A stretch of 63,963 nucleotides of DNA, filler included, from Folioceros fuciformis (Eukaryota): NCBI GenBank assembly GCA_049999805.1. It is 9 parts of 9 records of this genome, joined end to end, with 100 filler letters (N's around TTAATTAATTAA, not from the genome) between each part and the next. Parts side by side here need not be neighbours in the genome. Positions count along the whole stretch, not along the records: positions 10,720 to 25,968 come from JBNGIO010004205.1; 8 more parts are not named here. One strand, given 5' to 3'. Position 1 is the first letter of the stretch, and each line of letters begins with the position of its first letter. The translations under genes were made by a program, and so were the position numbers. The notes under the pieces are model-generated. The model ran no database searches. It was not told the DNA's origin and was given only the letters and a program-made list of their open reading frames with translations. Positions 18,076 through 49,039 of this stretch are shown in pieces.

Positions 18076-20246
18076 CCATCCAAGTGCAACTCACTCCCAA
18101 TGCCCGCCCCTGCTCCTGCTTCCGCTGCTAGCGTTCTTCACATCCCGGCCCCCTGAGCTCCCGCTGTCTGCCACTCTCCAGAATTGATTCATGAATCTAA
18201 TAGGCTACACTGTCCGCAGATCGAACGACCCCAACTTATTTCGGATCGCCACTCTGGAGGTTAGGGTTCAGCTGTGAGGACTGGAGAGCTCTGTCTACTG
18301 TGAAGCTAGCTAACCGTGCATTTGAGGCCAAGCAGATCGTGCATACTGTGCATGCTGTCGTGGAGAGCTCTGTGAAGCCGAGGAGATGCAGTGACAGAAA
18401 GTGTGGGGAAATGGATGCTTTCCTGATGGTCGAAATGTGGCGCTAAAGGATGCCTGGCGACATGGAGGACTGTGGTTTATGATTGCAGAAGTCATGGCTG
18501 CTTGTACCAAGCCATGGCCAAGAAATACGTCTGCTTCGATTACTCTTTCGTACATGTGCCAAGGGGGAGGTTCTTTTACCCCTGAATCCTCCAATGCAGG
18601 ACGTCAAGCGGCTTGCGTATGTAGCATGGTTGCTAAGGGTGTCTCAGTACAAGGTTGGTGAAGAAGATGCTTGCAAGTGTGGGCAAGTATCCCTCGCAAG
18701 GGGGGGTCTGGGAGATGCCGACAGAGATTGTTTGAAGCCCTGCAGTGGAGGATGTCAGGGTAGCAAAACTGTACCATCTGCGCCTTGCGAAGGAAAGAAG
18801 AACGAGAAGTTGGACGACGGACATGATGAGGGGGAATACACAATCTCAGGATGGGTAGATCAGGCTCTGTTCGTACGTAAGGGGATCCAACTAAAGGGCA
18901 TTAGCTAGCTGAGTAGAGGGATCAGGCTTTTCATGTCGAGTGATTGACAAGTTCCCGAGCTGTTTGAGGGGTGGTGACCGTGGGAAGGGTATCAAGCCAA
19001 TTGCTGCAGGTGAGATCGATCTGTTACTAAGTTGTTTGTTTAACGTATTGCATATAAAGAGACTGCTCCACGTCTGTGCTAACCAGGGACACGTTTCACA
19101 TTAGCCTTCGTTCCTTCCTTCTACCCTGCTTTGTATCTCTCGCTGCACAATGGCGGGACAGCTTTATTTTGGGGAGCGAGATTGGCTATAGCAATGACAG
19201 AGAAGTATAGAAAGCTGTGAAGCCATGCTTCGAGCCGAGCACTTCTAAGGTAGTGTGATCTGGACGAAAATTAGATGTCCTCGTATGGCAAGCCACGACG
19301 TTGGGGACGGAGATGGCAGGCTGGTACTCACCAGCACCGGTACACAAAAGAAAGAGCACAGCTGACCTGAATGCTATGAAGACACGCCTGCACGATGTGT
19401 GGGATGGCATCGATTGGCAAAGCACACTGGGCCGCCCTGATACTCCAAACGGCTCCACAGAGACCACTTCTCCTTGGACTGCTGGTCCGACACCACAGCG
19501 CTGGTCGGCTCTGTGCGCACCTTAAGGCTTCCGTGTTCTCGCATCAGGTTTGTCGACACGAAACCCGCCATATCTTTCCCTGTAGGAAATACGCACCTCG
19601 TTGTTCATCGGCCCCCTGGTGTCGGATGCAACGCTAGCTGGCGGAGGCCATGGTGACGGCAAAGTTGGAGCTCGGCTGCACCTGCATTGTTGCAGGAAAC
19701 GCGTCCTCTTCTGTTTGTCCAAGCGGTTTCCGGATGATGCCGGAAGCGGAGCAGAAGTCGGCAGCTTCCGCGTCGAGCCTAAGATTGAGCAGATCGCCGG
19801 AAGCGACGGCCTAGCCGAATCGGGCCACTTAAACTGGTGAGAGGCGGGACACCAGGTTCGGCGTCCATCCCGCCGAGGGATGCTGACGAGTTTGCCATTC
19901 CAGTAATGCGCTACGTCCCCGAGTTTAAATTTCTTGGCAAACCGAGAGCGACCACTGCACTCATCCGCTGGAGTAAGAGCTGCCACGCCGAGACCGAAAT
20001 GTGGTCCTCGTCCGCCATCGCCGTGATGCCTAACGAGGCTGATGGGGCCAGTTGGGGCCCGCTCTCGGCTGCAGGACGGAGAAGGAAAGACCAGAGAAAG
20101 TGAAAGAAGGAGAATTGATCCCTGCAGGATCAATTTTCCTCTCCAAGGAGCACGCTGAACAACTTTCCGCATGCGCATTGAACATACTTCGTTCGCAATC
20201 ATCCTGCCTATCTCGCCAAGTTGCCGAGCATGCTTAGAATAAAATA

Positions 20247-20366
20247 TGAGCACTGCGAGAATCGAACTCGCGTTCTCTAGGTGCGTTTCCTTGCCCAACT
20301 CCAATGGCTTTCTGTCCATCCCCATCTTCTAAACGGCCTAGCGTCAGACCACCTGACCCAATGCTC
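20247..20366 (-). ncRNA. tRNA-like gene copy 1: cloverleaf with 48-nt anticodon-loop insert; GTT at the anticodon position in a non-canonical loop
   Basis: Acceptor GAGCATT/AGTGCTC+A, D stem GTCA/TGAC, anticodon stem CTAGG/CCTAG, T arm GCGAG-TTCGATT-CTCGC, then TATTTT. Confidence 0.75.
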
Positions 20367-20449
20367 GAAATCCGACCTCCAGAAATCAATAATACACAGT
20401 CCTGGAGCATACAATGCGGTTCACCGACCGGAGTGCTTAAAATAAAATG

Positions 20450-20576
20450 TGAGCATTGCGAGAATCGAACTCGCGTCCTCTAGGTGGACCAATGGTTTTC
20501 AAACTCTCATTAAGTGAGAATCATCTTCGAAGAAAGAGATGTCAGCCTAGCGTCATACCAACTTGACCAAATGCTC
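20450..20576 (-). ncRNA. tRNA-like gene copy 2: cloverleaf, loop CT-GAC-A (nominal Val-GAC) with 54-nt insert at the canonical 37/38 intron position
   Basis: GAGCATT TG GTCA AGTTGGTA TGAC G CTAGG CT GAC A [54 nt] A CCTAG AGGAC GCGAG TTCGATT CTCGC AATGCTC A CATTTTATTTT. All four stems Watson-Crick; intact A and B boxes and a T-run terminator. Confidence 0.8.
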
Positions 20577-20639
20577 ATGATGCATACTTTGATGGGAGCA
20601 TTAATGTTATACTCTACCAAAGTCCAAGGGGTTGGTGGT

Positions 20640-21000
20640 TCCGTGCTTACTCCAAAATGTATGTACTCGGTGATCACTTCATACCGTTGCATCCAATGAT
20701 ACATGGTTATCCTTAAGCTCCAAGGGGCATGGAGGGCTCTCGTGGGAATCCAAAACTCGTCCAAGGGCATGAAGGGCTCTCGTGGGAATCCAAAACTCGT
20801 CAACCTTGATAGACGCTTTTTCTGCAAAGCAAGCCTCACATATGCTTACAAAAGCAGGTATGGCATGGCAAAGGAGACAGAGCCTCTATCCTATTTGTTT
20901 ATTCATTTTTTTCAAGGGTATCTTGGAGTATATGCTCCTTGGATCTCCAATCAAGGGAATAACTAATTCTAAATGTGCTTCACTGGCCAAGCACATTGGT
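20640..21000 (-). mobile_element. Decayed Copia-like fragment (GAG-pre-integrase CEAC...K region) with a 39-bp duplication
   Basis: ICEACFAEK...WIPTRALH; gggctctcgtgggaatccaaaactcgtc occurs twice. Confidence 0.35.
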
Positions 21001-21234
21001 CACTTCCTAGCACGTCTTGACAATGCTTAGAGAAGGGCCTCCACAACACACTCCCTTGTTTGCAAGCACTCATATTTAGTTTGCCGGCTACGAAAACAAC
21101 TACAACCTTTCAAGAGTGTGCTACTTAGATGAGAGCGTCTGCTAAGCATATGAAGTAGGGATCTCTTGCAAGAGATCCCCAAACCCTAAACCAATTGGTT
21201 GCAAGCATTGTCAAGTACAACGCTTCTTCTGATA

Positions 21235-21365
21235 GCCTAGCCTATTTCCTACTAGCAAGCAGGCCTAGCCTATTTCCTACTAGCAAGCAGGCCTAGCCTA
21301 TTTCCTACTNNNNNNNNNNTTCCTACTAGCAAGCAGGCCTAGCCTATTTCCTACTAGCAAGCAGG
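21235..21365. repeat. 28-bp tandem repeat (gcctagcctatttcctactagcaagcag), spans a 10-N gap
   Basis: Direct reading. Confidence 0.9.
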
Positions 21366-21368
21366 CGT

Positions 21369-21630
21369 TGTGTGACATCATCACATACAATGCAAAGCTC
21401 TGCACATTGCATCAGACTAGCCATGATCTCAATTCTTTTAGTCATTATGTGTGACATCATCACATACAATGCAGAGCTCTGCACATTGCATCAACCTAGC
21501 CATGATCTCAATTCTTTTAGTCATTACGTGTAACATCATCACATTGTCGTGTGATATCATCACATACAATGCAGAGCTCTGCGCATTGCATCAGCCTAGC
21601 CATGATCTCAATCTTCAAGGGTCATTACGT
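21369..21630. repeat. ~79-bp tandem repeat, 3 copies (tgtgtgacatcatcacatacaatgca...)
   Basis: Direct reading. Confidence 0.9.
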
Positions 21631-21960
21631 ACAACTTGGCAATGTGGGCTATGAAGATGGCAGTGCCCATAATAATGTGCTTATATATGAGCTCAAGTTT
21701 GATGGAGTAAGTAACAACCTCAACTAGTTGACACTAGGGGAATGTCCTTAGCAAGAGGGTAGGAGGCAAGTTTCTACCTTTCTGACCTTTCTAACTATGG
21801 AACTACAACTGACATTCACGATACTACTTACATGACTTTATTATTAAAACAATACATACAAGGATAAACATATGTTGTAGGCAAGTGCATACCATCCACT
21901 AGTTGCAAGCAAGTGTGTACTACTTGCTGGTGGGTGGGTACAAGTGCATGTGTTCACGAA

Positions 21961-22125
21961 CAAGTAGTAATCTAGAGTTTCTCATCCTTAGTATTGATTT
22001 TTTCTAACAACTTCTCTATGGCTTCAAGTACCACTTGTGCTGACAAGTAGTAATCTAGAGTTTCTTATCCTTAGTATTGATTTTTTCTAACAACTTCTCT
22101 ATGGCTTCAAGTACCACTTGTGCTG
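21961..22125. repeat. 83-bp tandem duplication of the RNase III gene's last codons and stop
   Basis: caagtagtaatctagagtttct...ccacttgtgctg occurs twice, nearly identical. Confidence 0.9.
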
Positions 22126-23433
22126 CTGCATTTTCAGCATGTTTCTTGCATGTTTGTGGAGTTCCTTTACCTTCAACAACTTTATCCACCTTTTCCACAC
22201 CTAAAATAGTCAATGTCACCTTTACGTTGCATGTGAATCTGTAAATGAATACAACAGTGAGCACAGATTATTTGAAGTAAGAGCACTTTGATAGAAATGC
22301 GTTGGAGCAAGATCTCACCTTCTTTGATGAGGGGGTCCTTCTTCGTGCAGGCTATATATTGGTAGAACCCAATGGCTTTGTGAACAAAGTTCGTTGAGTT
22401 TAGCCTTATATTGACCAGAAAGTGCTTGAGGTAAGGTTTTGGTAGATTCTATATACTCGTGCTCTGCCAAAAGAAAAGATTAAATTTTTAAAAAATGAAT
22501 AAAATATAAATGTGATGGGCATAAGAATAATACTCACTGATCCTTTTGTTTGAAATTTGTGTGTCCATAGGTTGTAGTAATTTTTGTTCTTTCCGTTTCT
22601 GTACGAATTAAAAATAAATTCTTCATTAACCCTAAAAAGCGTGGGTCTGAAGTGTAGATAGGGTTAAACCCTAAACCCTAAATCAATTTCATAACATGAA
22701 AAAATATTTCTTACCAATGAAGCAGAATTTGACAACTCATTTGGAGTGATTACTTGCAATAAGAGGGGATGTATAATACTCCATGTTTTCCGAAAATCAT
22801 CTTTCGTATCAATGAAAATTGCGGCCACTATGCTTTCGACAACATCTGCCAAAATCTATTGAAAGTATATATTCAAAATTTATAACATCGTCACACGCTT
22901 GTGGCACATATGAGAGAATGAGAAGTAGTGAACAAAACGCCACTTTACCTTAGGAAATTTCTCGTTACCAGTACAATTAAGATTGCAATTTGTGATTTGA
23001 GCATAAACACTTTTTTCTCTGTGCTGAATGTAGCGCCCAAGATTATAGGTTATTGCAACTTTTGCTAGTGACTCATTGTTCACCATAGCAGATCTCATAC
23101 GAGTCATGTCACCTTCAGAAGCATTTGGATATTTTGAATACAAATATCTAGTTAGCATTGCGCTAAGCAAAGTGTCTCCCATGTGTTCAAGTCGCTGCAT
23201 GAAAAATATTGGATTAGCATAAACCCTAAACCCTAGAAAATTAAGGCAAAGTATTGGTTTAACAACTACATCCTTACAAATCATACCTCATAAGACCCCC
23301 ATATGTCAGCACCTTCGTGTGACTTGTGAGTTATTGCTGCAAATAAAAGATTTTTGTCCTCAAAAGTATAGTCTAGTAGTCCCTCAAGTATGTCGAGTGC
23401 CTCTTTTGGAGAAAAACATTCATAGTTCTCCAT
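22055..23433 (-). CDS. RNase THREE-like protein: one RNase III domain + one dsRBD, 6 exons
   Basis: Manual splicing gives a continuous frame: LDYTFEDKNLLFAAITHKS, YE|RLEHMGD, ADVVESIVAAIFID, dsRBD YKAKLNELC...EEGPPHQRRFTCNVKV...KKHAENAAAQVVL. The frame stays open ~55 codons upstream of the ATG, so the start is uncertain. Confidence 0.88.
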
Positions 23434-25520: not shown

Positions 25521-26068
25521 CCCATCAGGCCTTACGAATCCGGCCTTGTGTTCCTAAGTAAAGGTGAACCAAGTGGGATCCTAAGGTATCCAATGCATCA
25601 AGCTTGGTACGAAGGTGAGGTAAAGAGTGTAGGTTATACCAGTCTACAACCAACAAAATCATTTCCACCAGTGTTGTGCATTTCCACCAATGTTGTGCAA
25701 TCTTGCATCGCAAAGTGCTTAAGAATATTTTCAAGAAAATGAAATTGGAGTATTGTCTAACACAAATATGCTAGCAGACTGAAAGCCTCAGTCTAGACAA
25801 GCATACTAGGTATAGGAAGATGCTTGGCTTCAGGGATTAGTTTGGATATGTTGTCAACATATCGAAATTGGAGTGGTTATCAGGAGTTGAGCAACCTCTA
25901 TTTACATGGACACTAAACAAACGGCTCTATGACCACTAAGCAGACCGCTCTATCACCATATTGGATGANNNNNNNNNNNNNNNNNNNNNNNNNNNNNNNN
26001 NNNNNNNNNNNNTTAATTAATTAANNNNNNNNNNNNNNNNNNNNNNNNNNNNNNNNNNNNNNNNNNNN

Positions 26069-29790: not shown

Positions 29791-30065
29791 TGACCTAAAC
29801 CTGACCTAAGTATGACCTATCTTGACCTAATCTAGGTCTACCCTAACCTGGATCTGACCTAAACCTAACCTAGGTATGACCTAAACCTAACCTAGGTCTA
29901 CCCTAACCTGGATCTGACCTAAACCTAACCTAGGTATGACCTAAACCTAACCTAGGTATGACCTAAACCTAACCTAGGTATGACCTAAACCTAACCTAGG
30001 TATGACCTAAACCTAACCTAGGTATGACCTAAACCTAACCTAGGTATGACCTAAACCTAACCTAG
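29790..30065. repeat. 22-bp satellite (atgacctaaacctaacctaggt) running into the scaffold end
   Basis: Direct reading; copies become more uniform toward the end. Confidence 0.92.
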
Positions 30066-41370: not shown

Positions 41371-42209
41371 GAATCATAAGATGCTCTCTAGTGCATATAA
41401 ATTAACATATATTATAGTGCTAGAGCAAGTGCTTTTATAGCACAAACGGTTACAAAGTGGTTACAAGGTTGTTGTAACCAATATAACAACTAACTACTTG
41501 AGTAACCAATTAAATAACTGTATTTAACCCTAGACATGAATTAGATAAACCCTAGAAATGAATTATATCTAATTCTAGGATTTAATAATATCCTAATGAG
41601 TAGTGCCCTAATATATTTGTATATTTTATCACTCCCACTCACTATGAGATAGGGGTGACGACGAACTATAAGAAAACATATTTGCCTAAAGACATTAATC
41701 TAATGCTAGGATAAGGTAATAATATCCAAAACTTCCTCCCCCCTCTTATTATAATCTTTATTTCAATTTCAAGTCATTTTCTCAATATAAATACCAAAAA
41801 CGAAATGAAGGTAGGAGAAACGACAGACGGGATTTTTTTTTAGGCGGTTAGTTGAAGGTTGAGGTCTCGAGACGGGTGCGATGGTGAAGCAACTGCGAGC
41901 ACCTGTTGGTAGGATCCTGCAGGAAACATTGATGGCTGCTGAGAGCATGGTGCCCTCGGCGCCTATCTAGCATGAGAGAGATACTACACCCGTCGCGAGG
42001 GTCAATAGTGCCGCGCCAAGAATTCCTCCAGACAAAACGGGAGATGAAGGTAACAATGTTGGGTCTGCAACGACTCCAAAATATGGTTTGTACACGAGGC
42101 GTGGGGGTCCTAGCAGGCAAGAGTCGCCTCTGGGAGGCATCGCGAGCCCTGGGCGCCCGTGTTCCTGCAAAAATTGCCAAGATAAAAGTCACAAAAAGAT
42201 AGTGACGGT

Positions 42210-45123
42210 ACATAATGTGAGTTGGAACATACTGAATATCTATTGTTTTATTTTCTAATACTTCTCTAATATAATGATATTCAACTGCAATGTGTTTAGT
42301 TCTAGAATGAAAAACGGGATTACGGGCTAAAGCTATGGCTCCTTGACTATCACTAAACAACATAGTGGGGTTATTTTGAGCATGACCCAGTTCTTTCAAA
42401 ACTAACTTGCTCCATATAATATCCTTGGCTGTTGATGTTAGAACTTTATATTCTAATTCAGTACTTGAAAGTGCAATGGTAGGTTGCTTTTTGCTGGACC
42501 ATGATATTGGTGCATTGCCCAAAACAAGTACATAACCGGAGACGAACTTCCTGGTATCATAGTCTCTAGCATAATCAGCATCGGCATAAGCTGTCAACGT
42601 AAGTGTCTCAATTGCAACCGTATGCCTATACATGAGTTCTATATTCATTGTGCCCTTAAGATATCTAAAAATACGCTTCACTGACATCCAATGTTCACAT
42701 CCAGGATTTTCTAAGAATTGTGAACAGGTGCTTACTTCGAATGAGATGTCTGGTCTAGTGAAATTACTCAAGTATATCGAAGTACCAACAGCATGTCGAT
42801 AAGGAACTATTAACATCTCTTGTTTTTCAGCAACTGCAATTGGACTCATTCAAAAAGTAAGGCGTATACCACTAGCGAATGGTGTAGGAGCAGGCTTAGC
42901 TTCTTCTAGTCCAAATTTAGCCAAGCTTTCTTTTATATATTTTGTCTGAACAATACTCAAGGTTTTATTAACTCTATCACGTATAATGTTGATACCAAGA
43001 GCATATGTCATTTCTCCGAGATTAGTCATCTCAAAATGACCTTGTAACCGAAGTTTTATCTCTGCTAAGAGAGAAGCTGATGATGAAAACATGAATAAAT
43101 CATCAACATATAAAAGTAGATAAAGAATATCATTTTCAGCTTTTAATATATACATGCTGGCATCGACTTTGCTAAGCATAAAACCTTTATTTACCAGCTT
43201 AGTATGTATAGTAACATTCCATTCTTTGCCTGATTGTTTTAGGCCATAAATGCATTTTATAAGTTTGCATACCCAATCTTCTTTTCCCTTAACTTCATAA
43301 CCCTCAGGTTGTCGCATGTAAATTTCTTCTTGAAGACAGCCATATAAATATGTTGTCTTAACATCCATCATGTGAAGATGGAAGTCATATTGTGCAGTTA
43401 AGGAAAAAATCATTCGTAGTGAGGTGAACTTTGCTACTGGGCCATATGTAGCATAAGGTATAAAGATGGAAGAATCATCAGATTCTATGAGAGGAGACAT
43501 AGGGGGAGGAAAATCAGAAGGTCCTCTCACTGGAGAAGAAAACAGGGCAAACTCATGAAATGTAACGCTTCTAGCATAAATCAGCTTGTGATTAGAAGGG
43601 TCAAACAATTTATAGCCTTTGATACCTTCGGTATAACCAATAAACTTGTATTTTGTAGCTTTAGGATCCAATTTCTTGCGTTGTGTAGGAGGAATGAAAA
43701 CATAAGCAGGACATCCGAAGATACGAAGATGATCAATAGAAGGCTTACGACCAATAAAAGCTTCATATGGAGTTTTGCTCTTTACCGCAGAGGTAGGTAA
43801 TCTGTTTAAAAGATAAGTAGCAGTAAGGATAGCTTCTGCCCAATAAATCTTAGGTAATCCGGCTTGAGATAAGAGGCAACCAGTGATTTCTTGTAAACGT
43901 AGATTCTTATTCTCAGCCACACCGTTTTGTTGAGGAGTATAAGCAATAGAAAATTGTTGGGCTATGCCTTCAACCGGGCAAAAATCAGAAAACGCTTGGG
44001 AGGTAAATTCTCCTCCATTATTAGAACGTAAAGTCTTAAGTTTCCTCTCTGTAAGGCGTTTTGCCCATGCCATATAATCCTTGAAGAAATGATAAGCATC
44101 ACTCTTGTGTTTGATAATATAGGTGAGGACAAAACGGGAATAGTCGTCGGTAAAGGTCAAGAAATATCTACTGCCACTGATAGAGGGGGTACAAATAAGA
44201 CCACAAATGTCTGTATGAACAAGCTCAAGAGAGAACTTGGCCCTCTGTGGGGAGATGTTCTTCTTCTGGAAGAAGTTGACCTGAATCACATCGGAGAACT
44301 ACATGACTAGTGCCTGCAATAGGTAGATTATGGTCATCTCCCATAAGGACAGACTTGTGACCTTTTGATGGGGAATAAGACTCAAAAAAGTTCTTACTGT
44401 AGTAGATGTGTGAGGTGGCTGCACTGTCAAGATGTGTGAGGTGGCTGCACTGCAAGGTTCAGAAGGCTTAGAAGAAGCCAAACATACAGTGAGAGCAGAT
44501 GGTGTTGCTGAATGTTGTCTCTTTACAGCAACAAGCGCTCCAGGTGAAGCCTCTTTCCTAGGCTCACCACTTTTCTTCTTTCTGCAATCCTTCTCTAAGT
44601 GGTTAGTAGTTCTGCACCAAGTACATACTATGCTGCTCTTCTTACTACCTTTTGAAGGTGTGGAAGAAGAGGCTATATCCTCAGTGGGATTATATTGAGT
44701 AGAGGCAGGAGAGCGTTGGGGGAATCCTCTACCACGGCCTCGGCCGCGCCCACGGCCTCTGCCCCTACCTCTTCTTGTAAACATCACCTGCTGTCGGCTG
44801 GGACGATATTCTTGTCGCCGGGTTGACTCCTCCTGAATCAATGCTCCAATTAACTCAGTAAGACTTATATCCATAGAATCTTCTGAGTCATATGTCCCCA
44901 TATTTTTACGAGCATTTCTGAAAACAGCGTTTTGAGTGGTAACAAGTGATCTATAGGAGGGTGGCAAAGAGGATAAGAGAACCACAAAGCAATTCAATTT
45001 TGAGATCTTTGAATTGGAGGCGCCCTCAAGTTGTGATCGTGCCAAGCGAAAAGCATTGACATGATGCTCAATGGAGTCTGACTCCTTCATCTTGAGGTTG
45101 TTGAAGTTGCGAGTAGCTGTCAT
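42210..45123 (-). mobile_element. Ty1/Copia gag-pol with internal deletions
   Basis: CTWCRTTNHLEKDC, DSAATSHI, VHTDICG, NGGEF, MMDVKTTYLYG, YVDD, DADYA, DSQGA. Confidence 0.95.
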
Positions 45124-45294
45124 TGACAGGTCATATTTAATTACCTTTTATTAGTTCAGGTTAAGGTTAGAGGATTAGGTGACGGTTACAACTAATACCC
45201 GTCGCCTAGTCAAGTTCACAAGACATGTCTCGTGACGCTCAATCTAATCTAATCACTTCTCTACGCTCACGCGAACATGTCATGGTATCAGAGC
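45124..45294 (+). mobile_element. Short 159-bp LTR (TGACA...TGTCA) followed by a tRNA-iMet primer-binding site
   Basis: Inverted termini at 45124 and 45282; TGGTATCAGAGC at 45283-45294. Confidence 0.75.
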
Positions 45295-47066: not shown

Positions 47067-48119
47067 TCAGTCGGTGTAGTTCGGGAGGGACGCCTCCGGG
47101 GCTCCTTGCACGGCGGCAGCGGAAGGAACCACATTCAGGTCGGGTTCTACATGCTTCTTCAGCAGAAAATCCGGAAGGGGAGGAATGCCGAACAAGTAGA
47201 ACGTGTAGAAGAGCTTGGTAGGAAAGATTATCTGGTGCAGTTTCACGAATCCGTACACTCCTCTGAATATTCCCGCGCCCCCAACCACAGCCAGCTCTGT
47301 GTCTTGGTATGTTAGGTAAGGGCCCTGCGTTACAACCAGTGCATTAGACTTGCTTGCAACGCTACACCCTTGGTAATGCGCGAGAGTATGGTGAAGAGGA
47401 CGGGACACGGCTACCTGGATGGTAACATGGCCGTAATCACCGAAGTAGAAGCTGTAATTGGCCTCGAACCTCTGCCCGTTCTTCTCGGGTACAGTCTTGA
47501 TGACTGCAGTTGTACCAGCCGTGATTCCCAGCCTGAGGGTTAATGATCCATCGTACAGCTGCCAGCACAATAGGCACGAACCACACACACCTTCCCCACA
47601 TTGAGAGCTCTTACAAAACACAACAACACAAGCACAAGCTAATTGATCCCAACCACAACGTTCTGGACAGGACAGGCCTCGCACCGTGGAAAGACTCGTG
47701 CTGCAGTTACTAACCTTGTTGGAGAAGGGCACCAGATCACCGATGGCAAGCACGGGGTTCCCGTTAGCATCCACCACCTTGGCCAGGGTCGGAGCCTGCG
47801 AGTTAAAAGGGGACCTGGACAAGGCGAGAACGGCAGGGCTGTGTCTATCTCCCTCGTTTATCTCGTACACTCGAAGCACCTGCGCCTTCTTCGGATCGAT
47901 AGTCCGCTCCGCCTCCTTCTCCTTGATGAAGAAAAATGCGTCAGCTGAGCCAGGGCCGGAGCCCGCAGGAGTGGAGACGGAAACCTCCCGCCTCGCCATC
48001 CCCAAGCTCACCGAGGCTTGCCCCCCCAGCCTCTGCCGCACACTCGCCAGCGAAGAGAAGGCCTCCGAAGAGCTCCGGTGCACCAGGGATGGCAGCGAGC
48101 GTCCGCATAGCGCAGCCAT
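47067..48119 (-). CDS. AOC: Allene oxide cyclase, plastid-targeted. Exons 48119-47715, 47558-47415, 47324-47067
   Basis: VYEINEGDRHSP, GDLVPFSNK|LYDG, RLGITAG, YSFYFGDYGH, GPYLTY, KLHQIIFPTKLFYTFYL; S/A/R-rich transit peptide. Confidence 0.95.
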   Translation of the reverse strand: MAALCGRSLPSLVHRSSSEAFSSLASVRQRLGGQASVSLGMARREVSVSTPAGSGPGSADAFFFIKEKEAERTIDPKKAQVLRVYEINEGDRHSPAVLALSRSPFNSQAPTLAKVVDANGNPVLAIGDLVPFSNKVSNCSTSLSTVRGLSCPERCGWDQLACACVVVFCKSSQCGEGVCGSCLLCWQLYDGSLTLRLGITAGTTAVIKTVPEKNGQRFEANYSFYFGDYGHVTIQVAVSRPLHHTLAHYQGCSVASKSNALVVTQGPYLTYQDTELAVVGGAGIFRGVYGFVKLHQIIFPTKLFYTFYLFGIPPLPDFLLKKHVEPDLNVVPSAAAVQGAPEASLPNYTD

Positions 48120-49039
48120 TCTCCGCAATTCCTTCTCCGTCACCAGCGCTCGCCGTAGCCCGTCGCGCTCATCTGCCTCAACAACGTTTGAGGCAGAAAC
48201 TGCGATCAGTACCGGGGGCCAGCAGACAGGAGTAGGAATACGGAATATGAGCGAGGCGAGCACCAATCAGGAAGCGCTGCTGTCCGTGTAGAGACCAGCT
48301 AGCAAAAGAGCTGAGGGTTGCTGGCTAGCGATCTACAGCATCCGGTCCCTTTCAGACTAAGGCCTATCTTTGTGCCCAAGAATCTTTTCACCGGACGCTC
48401 ACGAATCTGACTGCCCTGCTGTTTGAAGACGATCTGCTGTTTTCTTTCTTTTTCTTTTTCGTCGACACGAGATCTGCCGCTTTCGCCTACCTGGCGTCAA
48501 TAAGTGCGGCATGAGGGTACTTATTAATTACAATAAAATGTACGTGCGTAGTATAGGTGTATGTCGTATTTGTTTTTCCACATAAACAAAGAACCTTGGA
48601 TCCTTTCTTGGCTGTCCCTTAGTTAGAAGAACGAATTAAAAATAGTAAGACTGTGTATAAAATGTACAACTATGAAGTCTATGGTAGTCTACTACAGAGA
48701 AATTTTCTATTTGTGGTCTCGTGGGAAGTTTGGAGTGGAGTTGAGCCCAGTGGTCAGCAGAAGCTCCGTGGGAACAAGTAGGACCCCCAACTAGGGAAGG
48801 AAAGGTGTCTCGTAACCGGGGAAGGGAGGTTACCTCTTAGCCGGGGCAAGGAGGGAACCTCTTAGTTGGGGCAAGAAGGGGCCTCGAATTTGTGTGTTTT
48901 TAGTGTGTTTGTAGTGTGTTTCTTGGCAGCAAAAGCTCCGTGGGAAAAAGTAGGAGCCCCAACTAGGGAAAGGAAGGTGACTCATAACCAGGGAAGGGAG
49001 GTTATCTCTTAGCCAGGGCAAGGAGGGGACCTCTTAGTC

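Follow-up and report, generated by a model that had tools for sequence, protein, structure and literature searches.

The nearest described counterparts of the locus analyzed here are the clustered proline tRNA genes of plants, plant tRNA genes with introns, and tRNA genes that have shifted their anticodon or gained an intron. Tandem clusters of tRNA-Pro genes are widespread in plants, and the excerpts of PMC13437025 cited here describe their downstream flanks as better conserved than their upstream flanks; in Arabidopsis, the tRNA-Pro clusters are silent, according to the cited part of PMC7544208. Canonical introns in embryophytes are confined to tRNA-Tyr and elongator tRNA-Met, to which Ginkgo adds tRNA-Ile(TAT) (PMC13578239 and the PlantRNA 2.0 preprint, in the passages cited), and in Arabidopsis these introns have a length of 11-25 nt, as given in summary form. 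An earlier note on this DNA had likewise stated that tRNA introns of land plants are short and largely limited to Tyr and Met, and it had raised the possibility of an undescribed class of intron-containing tRNA. The reviews bear out the first statement; however, the tables of a survey of flowering plants (PMC11700998, as excerpted) list rare intron-containing genes in most other isotypes, including two for Pro in Panicum virgatum and one for Val in each of four genomes, as well as outlier introns of 59-172 bp in angiosperms. These tabulated cases argue against an undescribed class. Elsewhere in eukaryotes, recent gain of tRNA introns has been described in yeasts (PMC4090602, cited sections), and shifts of tRNA anticodons have been documented by Rogers and Griffiths-Jones (2014, PMC3923123, cited sections).

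Here, we present an analysis of two tRNA-shaped genes in a window of 63,963 nt, i.e., the whole stretch of DNA analyzed, from the Folioceros fuciformis assembly GCA_049999805.1. We tentatively favor, with a confidence somewhat short of even, the reading that the locus is a two-copy tandem cluster of proline-type tRNA genes with an old insertion in the anticodon loop, in which one copy (gene A) has remained intact and may be active with an anticodon that has shifted, and the other (gene B) is degenerating. Because A looks like a working gene and B like a decaying one, the locus would represent an unusual but ordinary instance of tRNA gene turnover rather than a new class of RNA.

Gene A spans 127 nt (20450-20576, minus strand), and gene B is a degenerate tandem copy of 120 nt (20247-20366, minus strand). 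They are arranged head-to-tail in the same orientation with a spacing of 203-209 bp (repeat families D4 and D9). A 17-nt T-arm core has exactly two occurrences across the window and was absent from 100 shuffled sequences, and the aligned genes are identical at 27/31 positions in the 5' bodies and 33/35 positions in the 3' bodies, within which the B-box region is the same in both. The anticodon stem CTAGG/CCTAG is likewise present in both genes. The two strands of this stem are separated by 61 nt in A and 55 nt in B, leaving inserts of 54 and 48 nt if the rule of insertion between positions 37 and 38 is applied. For A, this placement comes from ARAGORN: the 5' exon comprises tRNA positions 1-37 with the anticodon GAC at 34-36 (20540-20576, minus strand), the predicted intron of 54 nt follows (20486-20539, minus strand), and the 3' exon comprises positions 38-73 with the discriminator A73 (20450-20485, minus strand; sequence and ARAGORN). 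For B, the 48-nt insert (20283-20330, minus strand) is placed from the sequence by analogy with A alone.

The flanks of the two genes are also similar. Downstream of A, the T-runs CATTTTATTTT (20439-20449, minus strand) likely form a Pol III terminator, and B is followed by the T-run TATTTTATT (20238-20246, minus strand); in both cases, a T4 run begins 3 nt past the end of the gene. Upstream of A, a TATA-like patch TATAACATTAAT lies at −35 to −24 and a CAA triplet at −15 to −13 (together 20589-20611, minus strand), and upstream of B an AT-rich patch TGTATTATTGATTT lies at −30 to −17 (20383-20396, minus strand), all as counted by eye; a CAA triplet is absent between −16 and −1 of B. Motifs of the TATA-like and CAA types have been described upstream of plant tRNA genes (PMC11700998, in the section cited). 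When the 30 nt downstream of A and B are compared, their alignment beats 999 of 1000 shuffles, and the downstream poly(T) flank of the pair is better conserved than the upstream flank. Both genes have a Pol III-style layout, and A combines internal A and B boxes with its TATA-like patch, CAA triplet, and T4 terminator. What the earlier note had described from the DNA, i.e., two minus-strand genes with a nearly identical body approximately 200 bp apart, inserts of 48 and 54 nt, common T-run terminators, and an AT-rich patch upstream of each, is thus reproduced in all of these respects.

Based on the Rfam tRNA model RF00005, which has a gathering threshold of 29 bits, A scored 58.6 bits (E 4.2e-10) and B scored 39.1 bits (E 2.3e-7), the latter with the search narrowed to 146 nt, as B gave no match to this model in window-wide and 1-kb searches. 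The covariance-model search that the earlier note had proposed accordingly places both genes above threshold, and this match to RF00005 is a match to a catalogued family, an outcome that the note had named among those that would refute its interpretation. ARAGORN with default settings called no gene across the window. With introns allowed, it called a single gene in the window, which is A, at c[20449,20576]; the predicted product is tRNA-Val(GAC), interrupted by an intron of 54 nt at the canonical position 37/38. B was not called with or without introns allowed. Together, the two cloverleaves contain standard pairs in 42/42 cells, i.e., 21/21 in each gene. Twenty of the 21 stem pairs are identical between A and B, and the remaining pair has a substitution on a single side (U-A versus U-G). 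Covariation between the copies, which the earlier note had proposed to examine, was found in 0 of the 21 pairs.

Beyond the stems, the genes differ in the core nucleotides. The invariant core of tRNAs includes U8, A14, G18-G19, A21, U33, T54-T55-C56, and A58. Inspected by eye, A keeps every one of these nucleotides, whereas B has G8, G14, C21, and C33 in place of U8, A14, A21, and U33. When the inserts are removed in silico, the predicted minimum-energy structure is a perfect cloverleaf for the exons of A but not for those of B. The resulting anticodon loops (A, CUGACAA; B, CCGUUUA) bear no relation to each other, and a Pro anticodon (NGG) is found in neither gene. A differs from the Tyr and elongator Met families by its GAC anticodon and its Pro-type body, and the inserts of 54 and 48 nt compare with approximately 11-25 nt in those families; judged by its predicted structure, A would formally be an intron-containing tRNA gene outside both families. 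For annotators, it is relevant that one gene finder names such copies by their anticodon alone.

The body of the two genes was compared by hand with a single isotype, using the 72-nt Arabidopsis tRNA-Pro consensus printed in PMC2863065 as reference and outgroup; probes printed in the cited part of PMC7544208 additionally give the 3' halves of Arabidopsis tRNA-Pro of the dispersed and the clustered type. Outside the anticodon loop, A is identical to Arabidopsis tRNA-Pro at 52/66 positions, the remainder being 13 substitutions and an additional T in the D loop, and B is identical at 47/65 positions by hand. Eight of the 13 substitutions in A make up four double compensatory changes, at the pairs 2:71, 29:41, 31:39, and 49:65. 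Two more convert U13.U22 and G10.U25 into Watson-Crick pairs, the remaining three are unpaired (positions 26, 47, and 73), and no pair is broken. One of the unpaired changes concerns the discriminator, in that the C73 of tRNA-Pro is lost and A has A73. This pattern supports that A and B descend from a tRNA-Pro-type body. The likeness to plant tRNA-Pro had been put forward in the earlier note from a tRNA-Pro sequence that agrees with the PMC2863065 consensus and the PMC7544208 probes, and the paired differences A2-U71 and G49-C65 that it listed are real in our hand comparison with Arabidopsis tRNA-Pro. The change of the anticodon stem relative to Arabidopsis is real as well; the stem is not, however, a new one, being the Pro stem with two swapped pairs. 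In one DNA run, a 32-nt contig of higher depth matched 29 nt of the variable loop, T arm, and acceptor strand of A with one difference, and the match ends near the 3' acceptor end. As a weak hint, this contig would be expected if the parent family is multi-copy and its T stem already contains G49-C65, with the proviso that contig depth is not copy number, and it hints equally weakly that the A2-U71 change may be private to the pair.

Compared with the Arabidopsis tRNA-Pro clusters on Chr1 and Chr2, as they appear in the cited parts of PMC7544208, PMC13437025, and PMC11700998, the pair is alike in its Pro-type body, its head-to-tail order, and its better-conserved downstream poly(T) flank. It differs from these clusters in comprising only two copies, in having lost NGG and C73, in the swapped pairs 2:71, 29:41, 31:39, and 49:65, and in the insert of 48-54 nt. 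A third copy of the body was absent from the window in searches with the exact T-arm core and with blastn-short. Among the contigs of three DNA runs with the species label, matches with at least 80% likeness comprised only the locus itself, in two runs that are possibly the assembly source, and the 32-nt T-arm contig; such contigs can miss copies. The DNA run X3 and the presumed RNA run X4 gave no coverage of the locus, and no RNA run is listed as containing it. A pattern spanning both stems and the insert, as well as a pattern for the 3' half, had 0 matches in metagenome contigs, and the 3'-half pattern had 0 matches in prokaryote genomes and 0 in viral contigs.

The two inserts have the motifs GAAGATG and GAAARCCATTGG in common. 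The former is identical at 7/7 positions (A, 20522-20528; B, 20323-20329; minus strand, from the alignment), and the latter, present as GAAAACCATTGG in A (20489-20500) and as GAAAGCCATTGG in B (20301-20312; minus strand), is identical at 11/12 positions and was recovered by reciprocal blastn-short matches. The remainder of the inserts is separated by approximately five indel events, as counted by eye. The score of the global alignment of the inserts was reached by 23/2000 and 10/1000 shuffles, i.e., it is better than approximately 99% of them. From this comparison, we infer that the two inserts are diverged versions of one ancestral insert. The earlier note had called the inserts different, which is correct in that their lengths and sequences differ, but not in the sense of unrelated cargo, given that two motifs are common to both and that the shuffle test indicates homology. 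Nor does the locus fit the description of a variable cargo on a conserved scaffold: it comprises only two copies, the inserts appear to have diverged from one ancestor, and B lacks core tRNA nucleotides.

Several candidate origins and identities of the inserts were considered and rejected. Local alignments of both inserts with both tRNA halves on both strands gave P=0.09-0.99 in 16/16 cases, which argues against the inserts having arisen by partial copying of a tRNA half. Further copies of the inserts were absent from the window by blastn-short, and no Rfam family matched the inserts at E up to 10; the known RNAs listed near the locus at E up to 10, i.e., bxd_7, Plastid-ycf2, and flavi_FSE, are all far below threshold. 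By eye, no box C/D elements are conserved between the inserts of A and B.

With the cloverleaf enforced, the anticodon stem of both copies continues into a further helix past a small internal loop, whose 3' side ends in CA in both genes. This helix consists of 3 bp (GAC/GUC) at positions 34-36 in A and of 5 bp (CGUUU/AAACG) at positions 33-37 in B, a register that is shifted relative to the canonical anticodon-intron helix; in A, part of the anticodon pairs with the 3' end of the insert. Because 34% of shuffles for A (P=0.34) and 2.6% for B (P=0.026, marginal) form an extension helix of this kind, we do not regard it as evidence of design. The proximal anticodon-intron pair, which joins position 32 to intron position −3, is the sole conserved pair of this helix and is critical for excision, as described in the cited part of PMC10485636. 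This pair is absent from both genes, which have C.U (A) and C.C (B) by eye.

Compared with the canonical, protein-spliced introns of plant tRNA-Tyr and elongator tRNA-Met, A is alike in having a predicted 37/38 insert in an otherwise normal cloverleaf, with part of the anticodon paired to the 3' end of the insert. It differs from them in insert length (54 and 48 nt for the pair, compared with 11-25 nt in Arabidopsis), in the missing proximal pair, and in isotype, and its splicing is a prediction. A also resembles the sporadic intron-containing genes outside Tyr and Met tabulated by Monloy and Planta (2024, PMC11700998, cited tables) in that it is a lineage-specific gene with an insert at the canonical site in a normally intronless isotype, with a length in or just under the range of 59-172 bp; those genes belong to tRNAscan-SE high-confidence sets and are not characterized further in the excerpts cited. 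In contrast to these genes, the body and the anticodon of A disagree, being of the Pro and Val types, respectively, and a degenerate copy adjoins it. Similarly, A is alike the described cases of alloacceptor remolding (PMC3923123) and of intron gain in yeasts (PMC4090602) in that its body and anticodon are of different isotypes and an intron is present where relatives have none. In the cited sections, those cases are shown by cross-species synteny, whereas direction and timing are deduced here from the Arabidopsis outgroup only.

The differences between the two 66-nt bodies provide information on constraint. There are six differences, of which five are unpaired and one lies in a stem with its pairing kept, a placement with a hypergeometric P=0.021, or 0.008 if the kept pair is counted. 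With Arabidopsis tRNA-Pro as the outgroup, five of these differences are derived in B (G8, G14, C21, A46, and G67) and one is derived in A (the extra T17), supporting that A stayed canonical and that B drifted, partly at universally conserved positions. In the alignable blocks of insert and flank, approximately 8/51 positions differ by eye, compared with 6/66 in the bodies, which is not significant; the main contrast between body and insert lies in the indels, with one 1-nt event in the body and approximately five events in the insert (by eye). Gene conversion between the neighboring copies could keep the bodies alike and thereby mimic constraint. Altogether, these comparisons constitute moderate evidence that A has been under tRNA-type constraint and weak evidence that B retained its stems for part of its history. 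The earlier note had argued for selection on structure rather than decay; the pair-preserving differences from Arabidopsis tRNA-Pro agree with this argument for A.

The closest rival of the preferred reading, possible although we consider it the less probable of the two, is that both copies are dead relics, i.e., that a tRNA-Pro gene of a cluster was inactivated by an insertion in the anticodon loop and then underwent local duplication and drift, with A being young or lucky. The divergence of inserts and flanks is not clearly above that of the bodies, which speaks for this reading, as do the lack of covarying pairs between A and B, the missing proximal anticodon-intron pair in both, and the unrelated anticodon loops. 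The literature adds that plant genomes contain many tRNA-like genes and pseudogenes (PlantRNA 2.0 preprint, as excerpted) and that clustered Pro tRNA genes of Arabidopsis are not expressed (PMC7544208, as excerpted). However, all of the invariant nucleotides lost by B are kept in A, with derived body changes at one position in A and five in B, and each of the 13 substitutions that separate A from Arabidopsis tRNA-Pro leaves pairing as good as before or better; A2-U71 belongs to these substitutions and is private to the pair only by the weak hint of the 32-nt contig. The scarcity of indels in the body, with a single 1-nt event compared with approximately five events in the insert by eye, also speaks against the relics. 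The preferred reading, in turn, has against it the missing proximal anticodon-intron pair and the reviews that confine land-plant tRNA introns to short ones in Tyr and elongator Met, with Ile(TAT) in Ginkgo. By our estimate, the canonical U33 and a purine at position 37 would also be found in one of two copies by luck in roughly 1 in 4 cases, and it is slightly odd that the stems of B are fully intact, at 21/21, if B has undergone pure decay.

The same intact stems are among the few observations that speak for a lineage-specific family of Pol III noncoding RNAs, which we consider unlikely. Here, a tRNA-Pro chassis would provide the promoter, the ends made by RNase P and RNase Z, and the anticodon stem, and would present or release an evolving RNA of approximately 50 nt; the functional part would be the insert, with the core GAAGAUG ... 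GAAARCCAUUGG, which would either remain in place within an extended anticodon arm or be freed as an intron RNA of linear or circular form. B has lost decoding features and nevertheless keeps 21/21 stem pairs, the B box, and the terminator; the insert motifs are identical at 7/7 and 11/12 positions with the remaining insert rearranged; and in both copies a helix of 3 bp (A) or 5 bp (B) extends the anticodon stem beyond the internal loop with its common 3' CA. Animal tRNA introns can yield circular RNAs. In archaea, the intron of tRNA-Trp is a box C/D guide (listed among the references of PMC4090602), and by analogy with such functional intron RNAs an insert of this length at the intron site might conceivably be set free as a separate RNA. 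Compared with the archaeal guides and the animal circular RNAs, the inserts here have no C/D boxes conserved by eye and no Rfam match at E up to 10. Moreover, there are two copies in one place and none elsewhere in the window or among the DNA-run contigs at at least 80% likeness, the metagenome, prokaryote, and viral collections gave no matches, and the extension helix is at P=0.34 (A) and P=0.026 (B). Positive support for a scaffold with a cargo is thus limited to the intact stems of B and the two conserved insert motifs, and this reading of the locus remains a doubtful one. A role of the pair at the level of DNA alone appears quite improbable; here, the genes would be retained because TFIIIC/Pol III bind to them, with an effect as a chromatin boundary or on the activity of neighboring Pol II genes, and the RNA would be irrelevant. 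tRNA genes can act on chromosome structure, the B-box region is the same in both copies, and the pair sits between an open reading frame with an RNase III domain and a GC-rich stretch; such a role does not, however, require the intact acceptor, D, and anticodon stems seen in both copies. Finally, a tRNA-derived SINE or other mobile element would share the tRNA-like head with A and B boxes, but in the pair the insert is directly followed by a complete tRNA 3' half and a terminator. The earlier note had itself named dispersed, tailed copies with target-site duplications as the mark of an ordinary SINE. Copies of this type were not found in the window or among the DNA-run contigs, which contain the locus and the 32-nt T-arm contig; the two genes aside, neither direct repeats nor tails flank the pair, which makes a SINE very unlikely, close to negligible.

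For the preferred reading of a two-copy Pro-type cluster with one degenerating copy, we suggest the following course of events. The common ancestor of A and B would have been a member of the plant tRNA-Pro family that had already lost the Pro anticodon and had already gained an insertion of approximately 50 nt in the anticodon loop. A would be a still intact Pol III tRNA gene, whose transcription would give a precursor of approximately 127 nt. RNase P and RNase Z would trim the ends of this precursor, and splicing at 37/38, provided that the insert is a substrate of the plant splicing endonuclease, would then yield a 73-nt tRNA with the anticodon GAC and A73. In the spliced product, a Pro-type body would carry an anticodon for reading Val codons. 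To our knowledge, eukaryotes do not usually have a Val anticodon with G34, and charging could be poor when such an anticodon sits on a Pro-type body. Within the preferred reading, we estimate the probability of A taking part in translation as close to, but under, one half. B would be a degenerating duplicate that has kept its stems, has lost U8, A14, A21, and U33, and could not decode, and the inserts would be diverged copies of an ancestral insert rather than payloads. If the product of A is spliced and charged, the locus would document a recent intron gain with an isotype switch, from a Pro body to a Val anticodon, in a poorly sampled embryophyte; if nothing is expressed, it would provide a clear snapshot of the decay of a clustered tRNA-Pro gene.

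The surroundings of the pair contain several further features. The window has 25 N runs with lengths of 10, 44, and 100 (e.g., 1240-1339, 21310-21319, and 25969-26068), none of which touches the pair. Gene B is overlapped by a 268-codon open frame at 19522-20328. This frame matches no Pfam family and resembles GC-rich noncoding DNA, and we rejected it as a coding candidate. Upstream of A by 150-225 nt, a 37-nt repeat is present twice, 40 nt apart (20725-20801), and its minus strand is, by eye, faintly like a T arm and acceptor end. Tandem repeats are abundant in the intergenic DNA that follows upstream, with 28-nt units at 21218-21366, three 79-nt units at 21369-21626, and two 83-nt units at 21960-22125. 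Approximately 2.3 kb upstream of the pair and on the same strand, an open frame at 22880-23287 (minus strand) contains a Ribonuclease III domain (PF00636, E 1.8e-18), and this frame probably corresponds to a single exon of a gene of the RNase III-like or Dicer-like type.

Farther along the window, a repeat with a 22-nt period at 29854-30050 gave eight 8-nt blastn-short matches, of which seven are spaced by 22 nt from 29933 on; it overlaps an Rfam match to MIR8757 that is far below threshold (25.6 bits compared with a threshold of 83). The coding region of a Copia-type LTR retrotransposon, with gag, integrase, SH3-like, and RVT_2 matches, extends over three adjacent stop-to-stop frames at 41848-45147 (minus strand). 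An allene oxide cyclase gene lies at 47067-48266 (minus strand), with three Pfam-matching stretches in one 399-codon open frame. As all of these stretches are in a single open frame, the introns of this gene appear to stay in frame, and the frame is only 38-48% identical to angiosperm and fern homologues alike, which places this plant at a distance from all well-sampled species. The window, which also contains a P450 fragment, is land-plant nuclear DNA.
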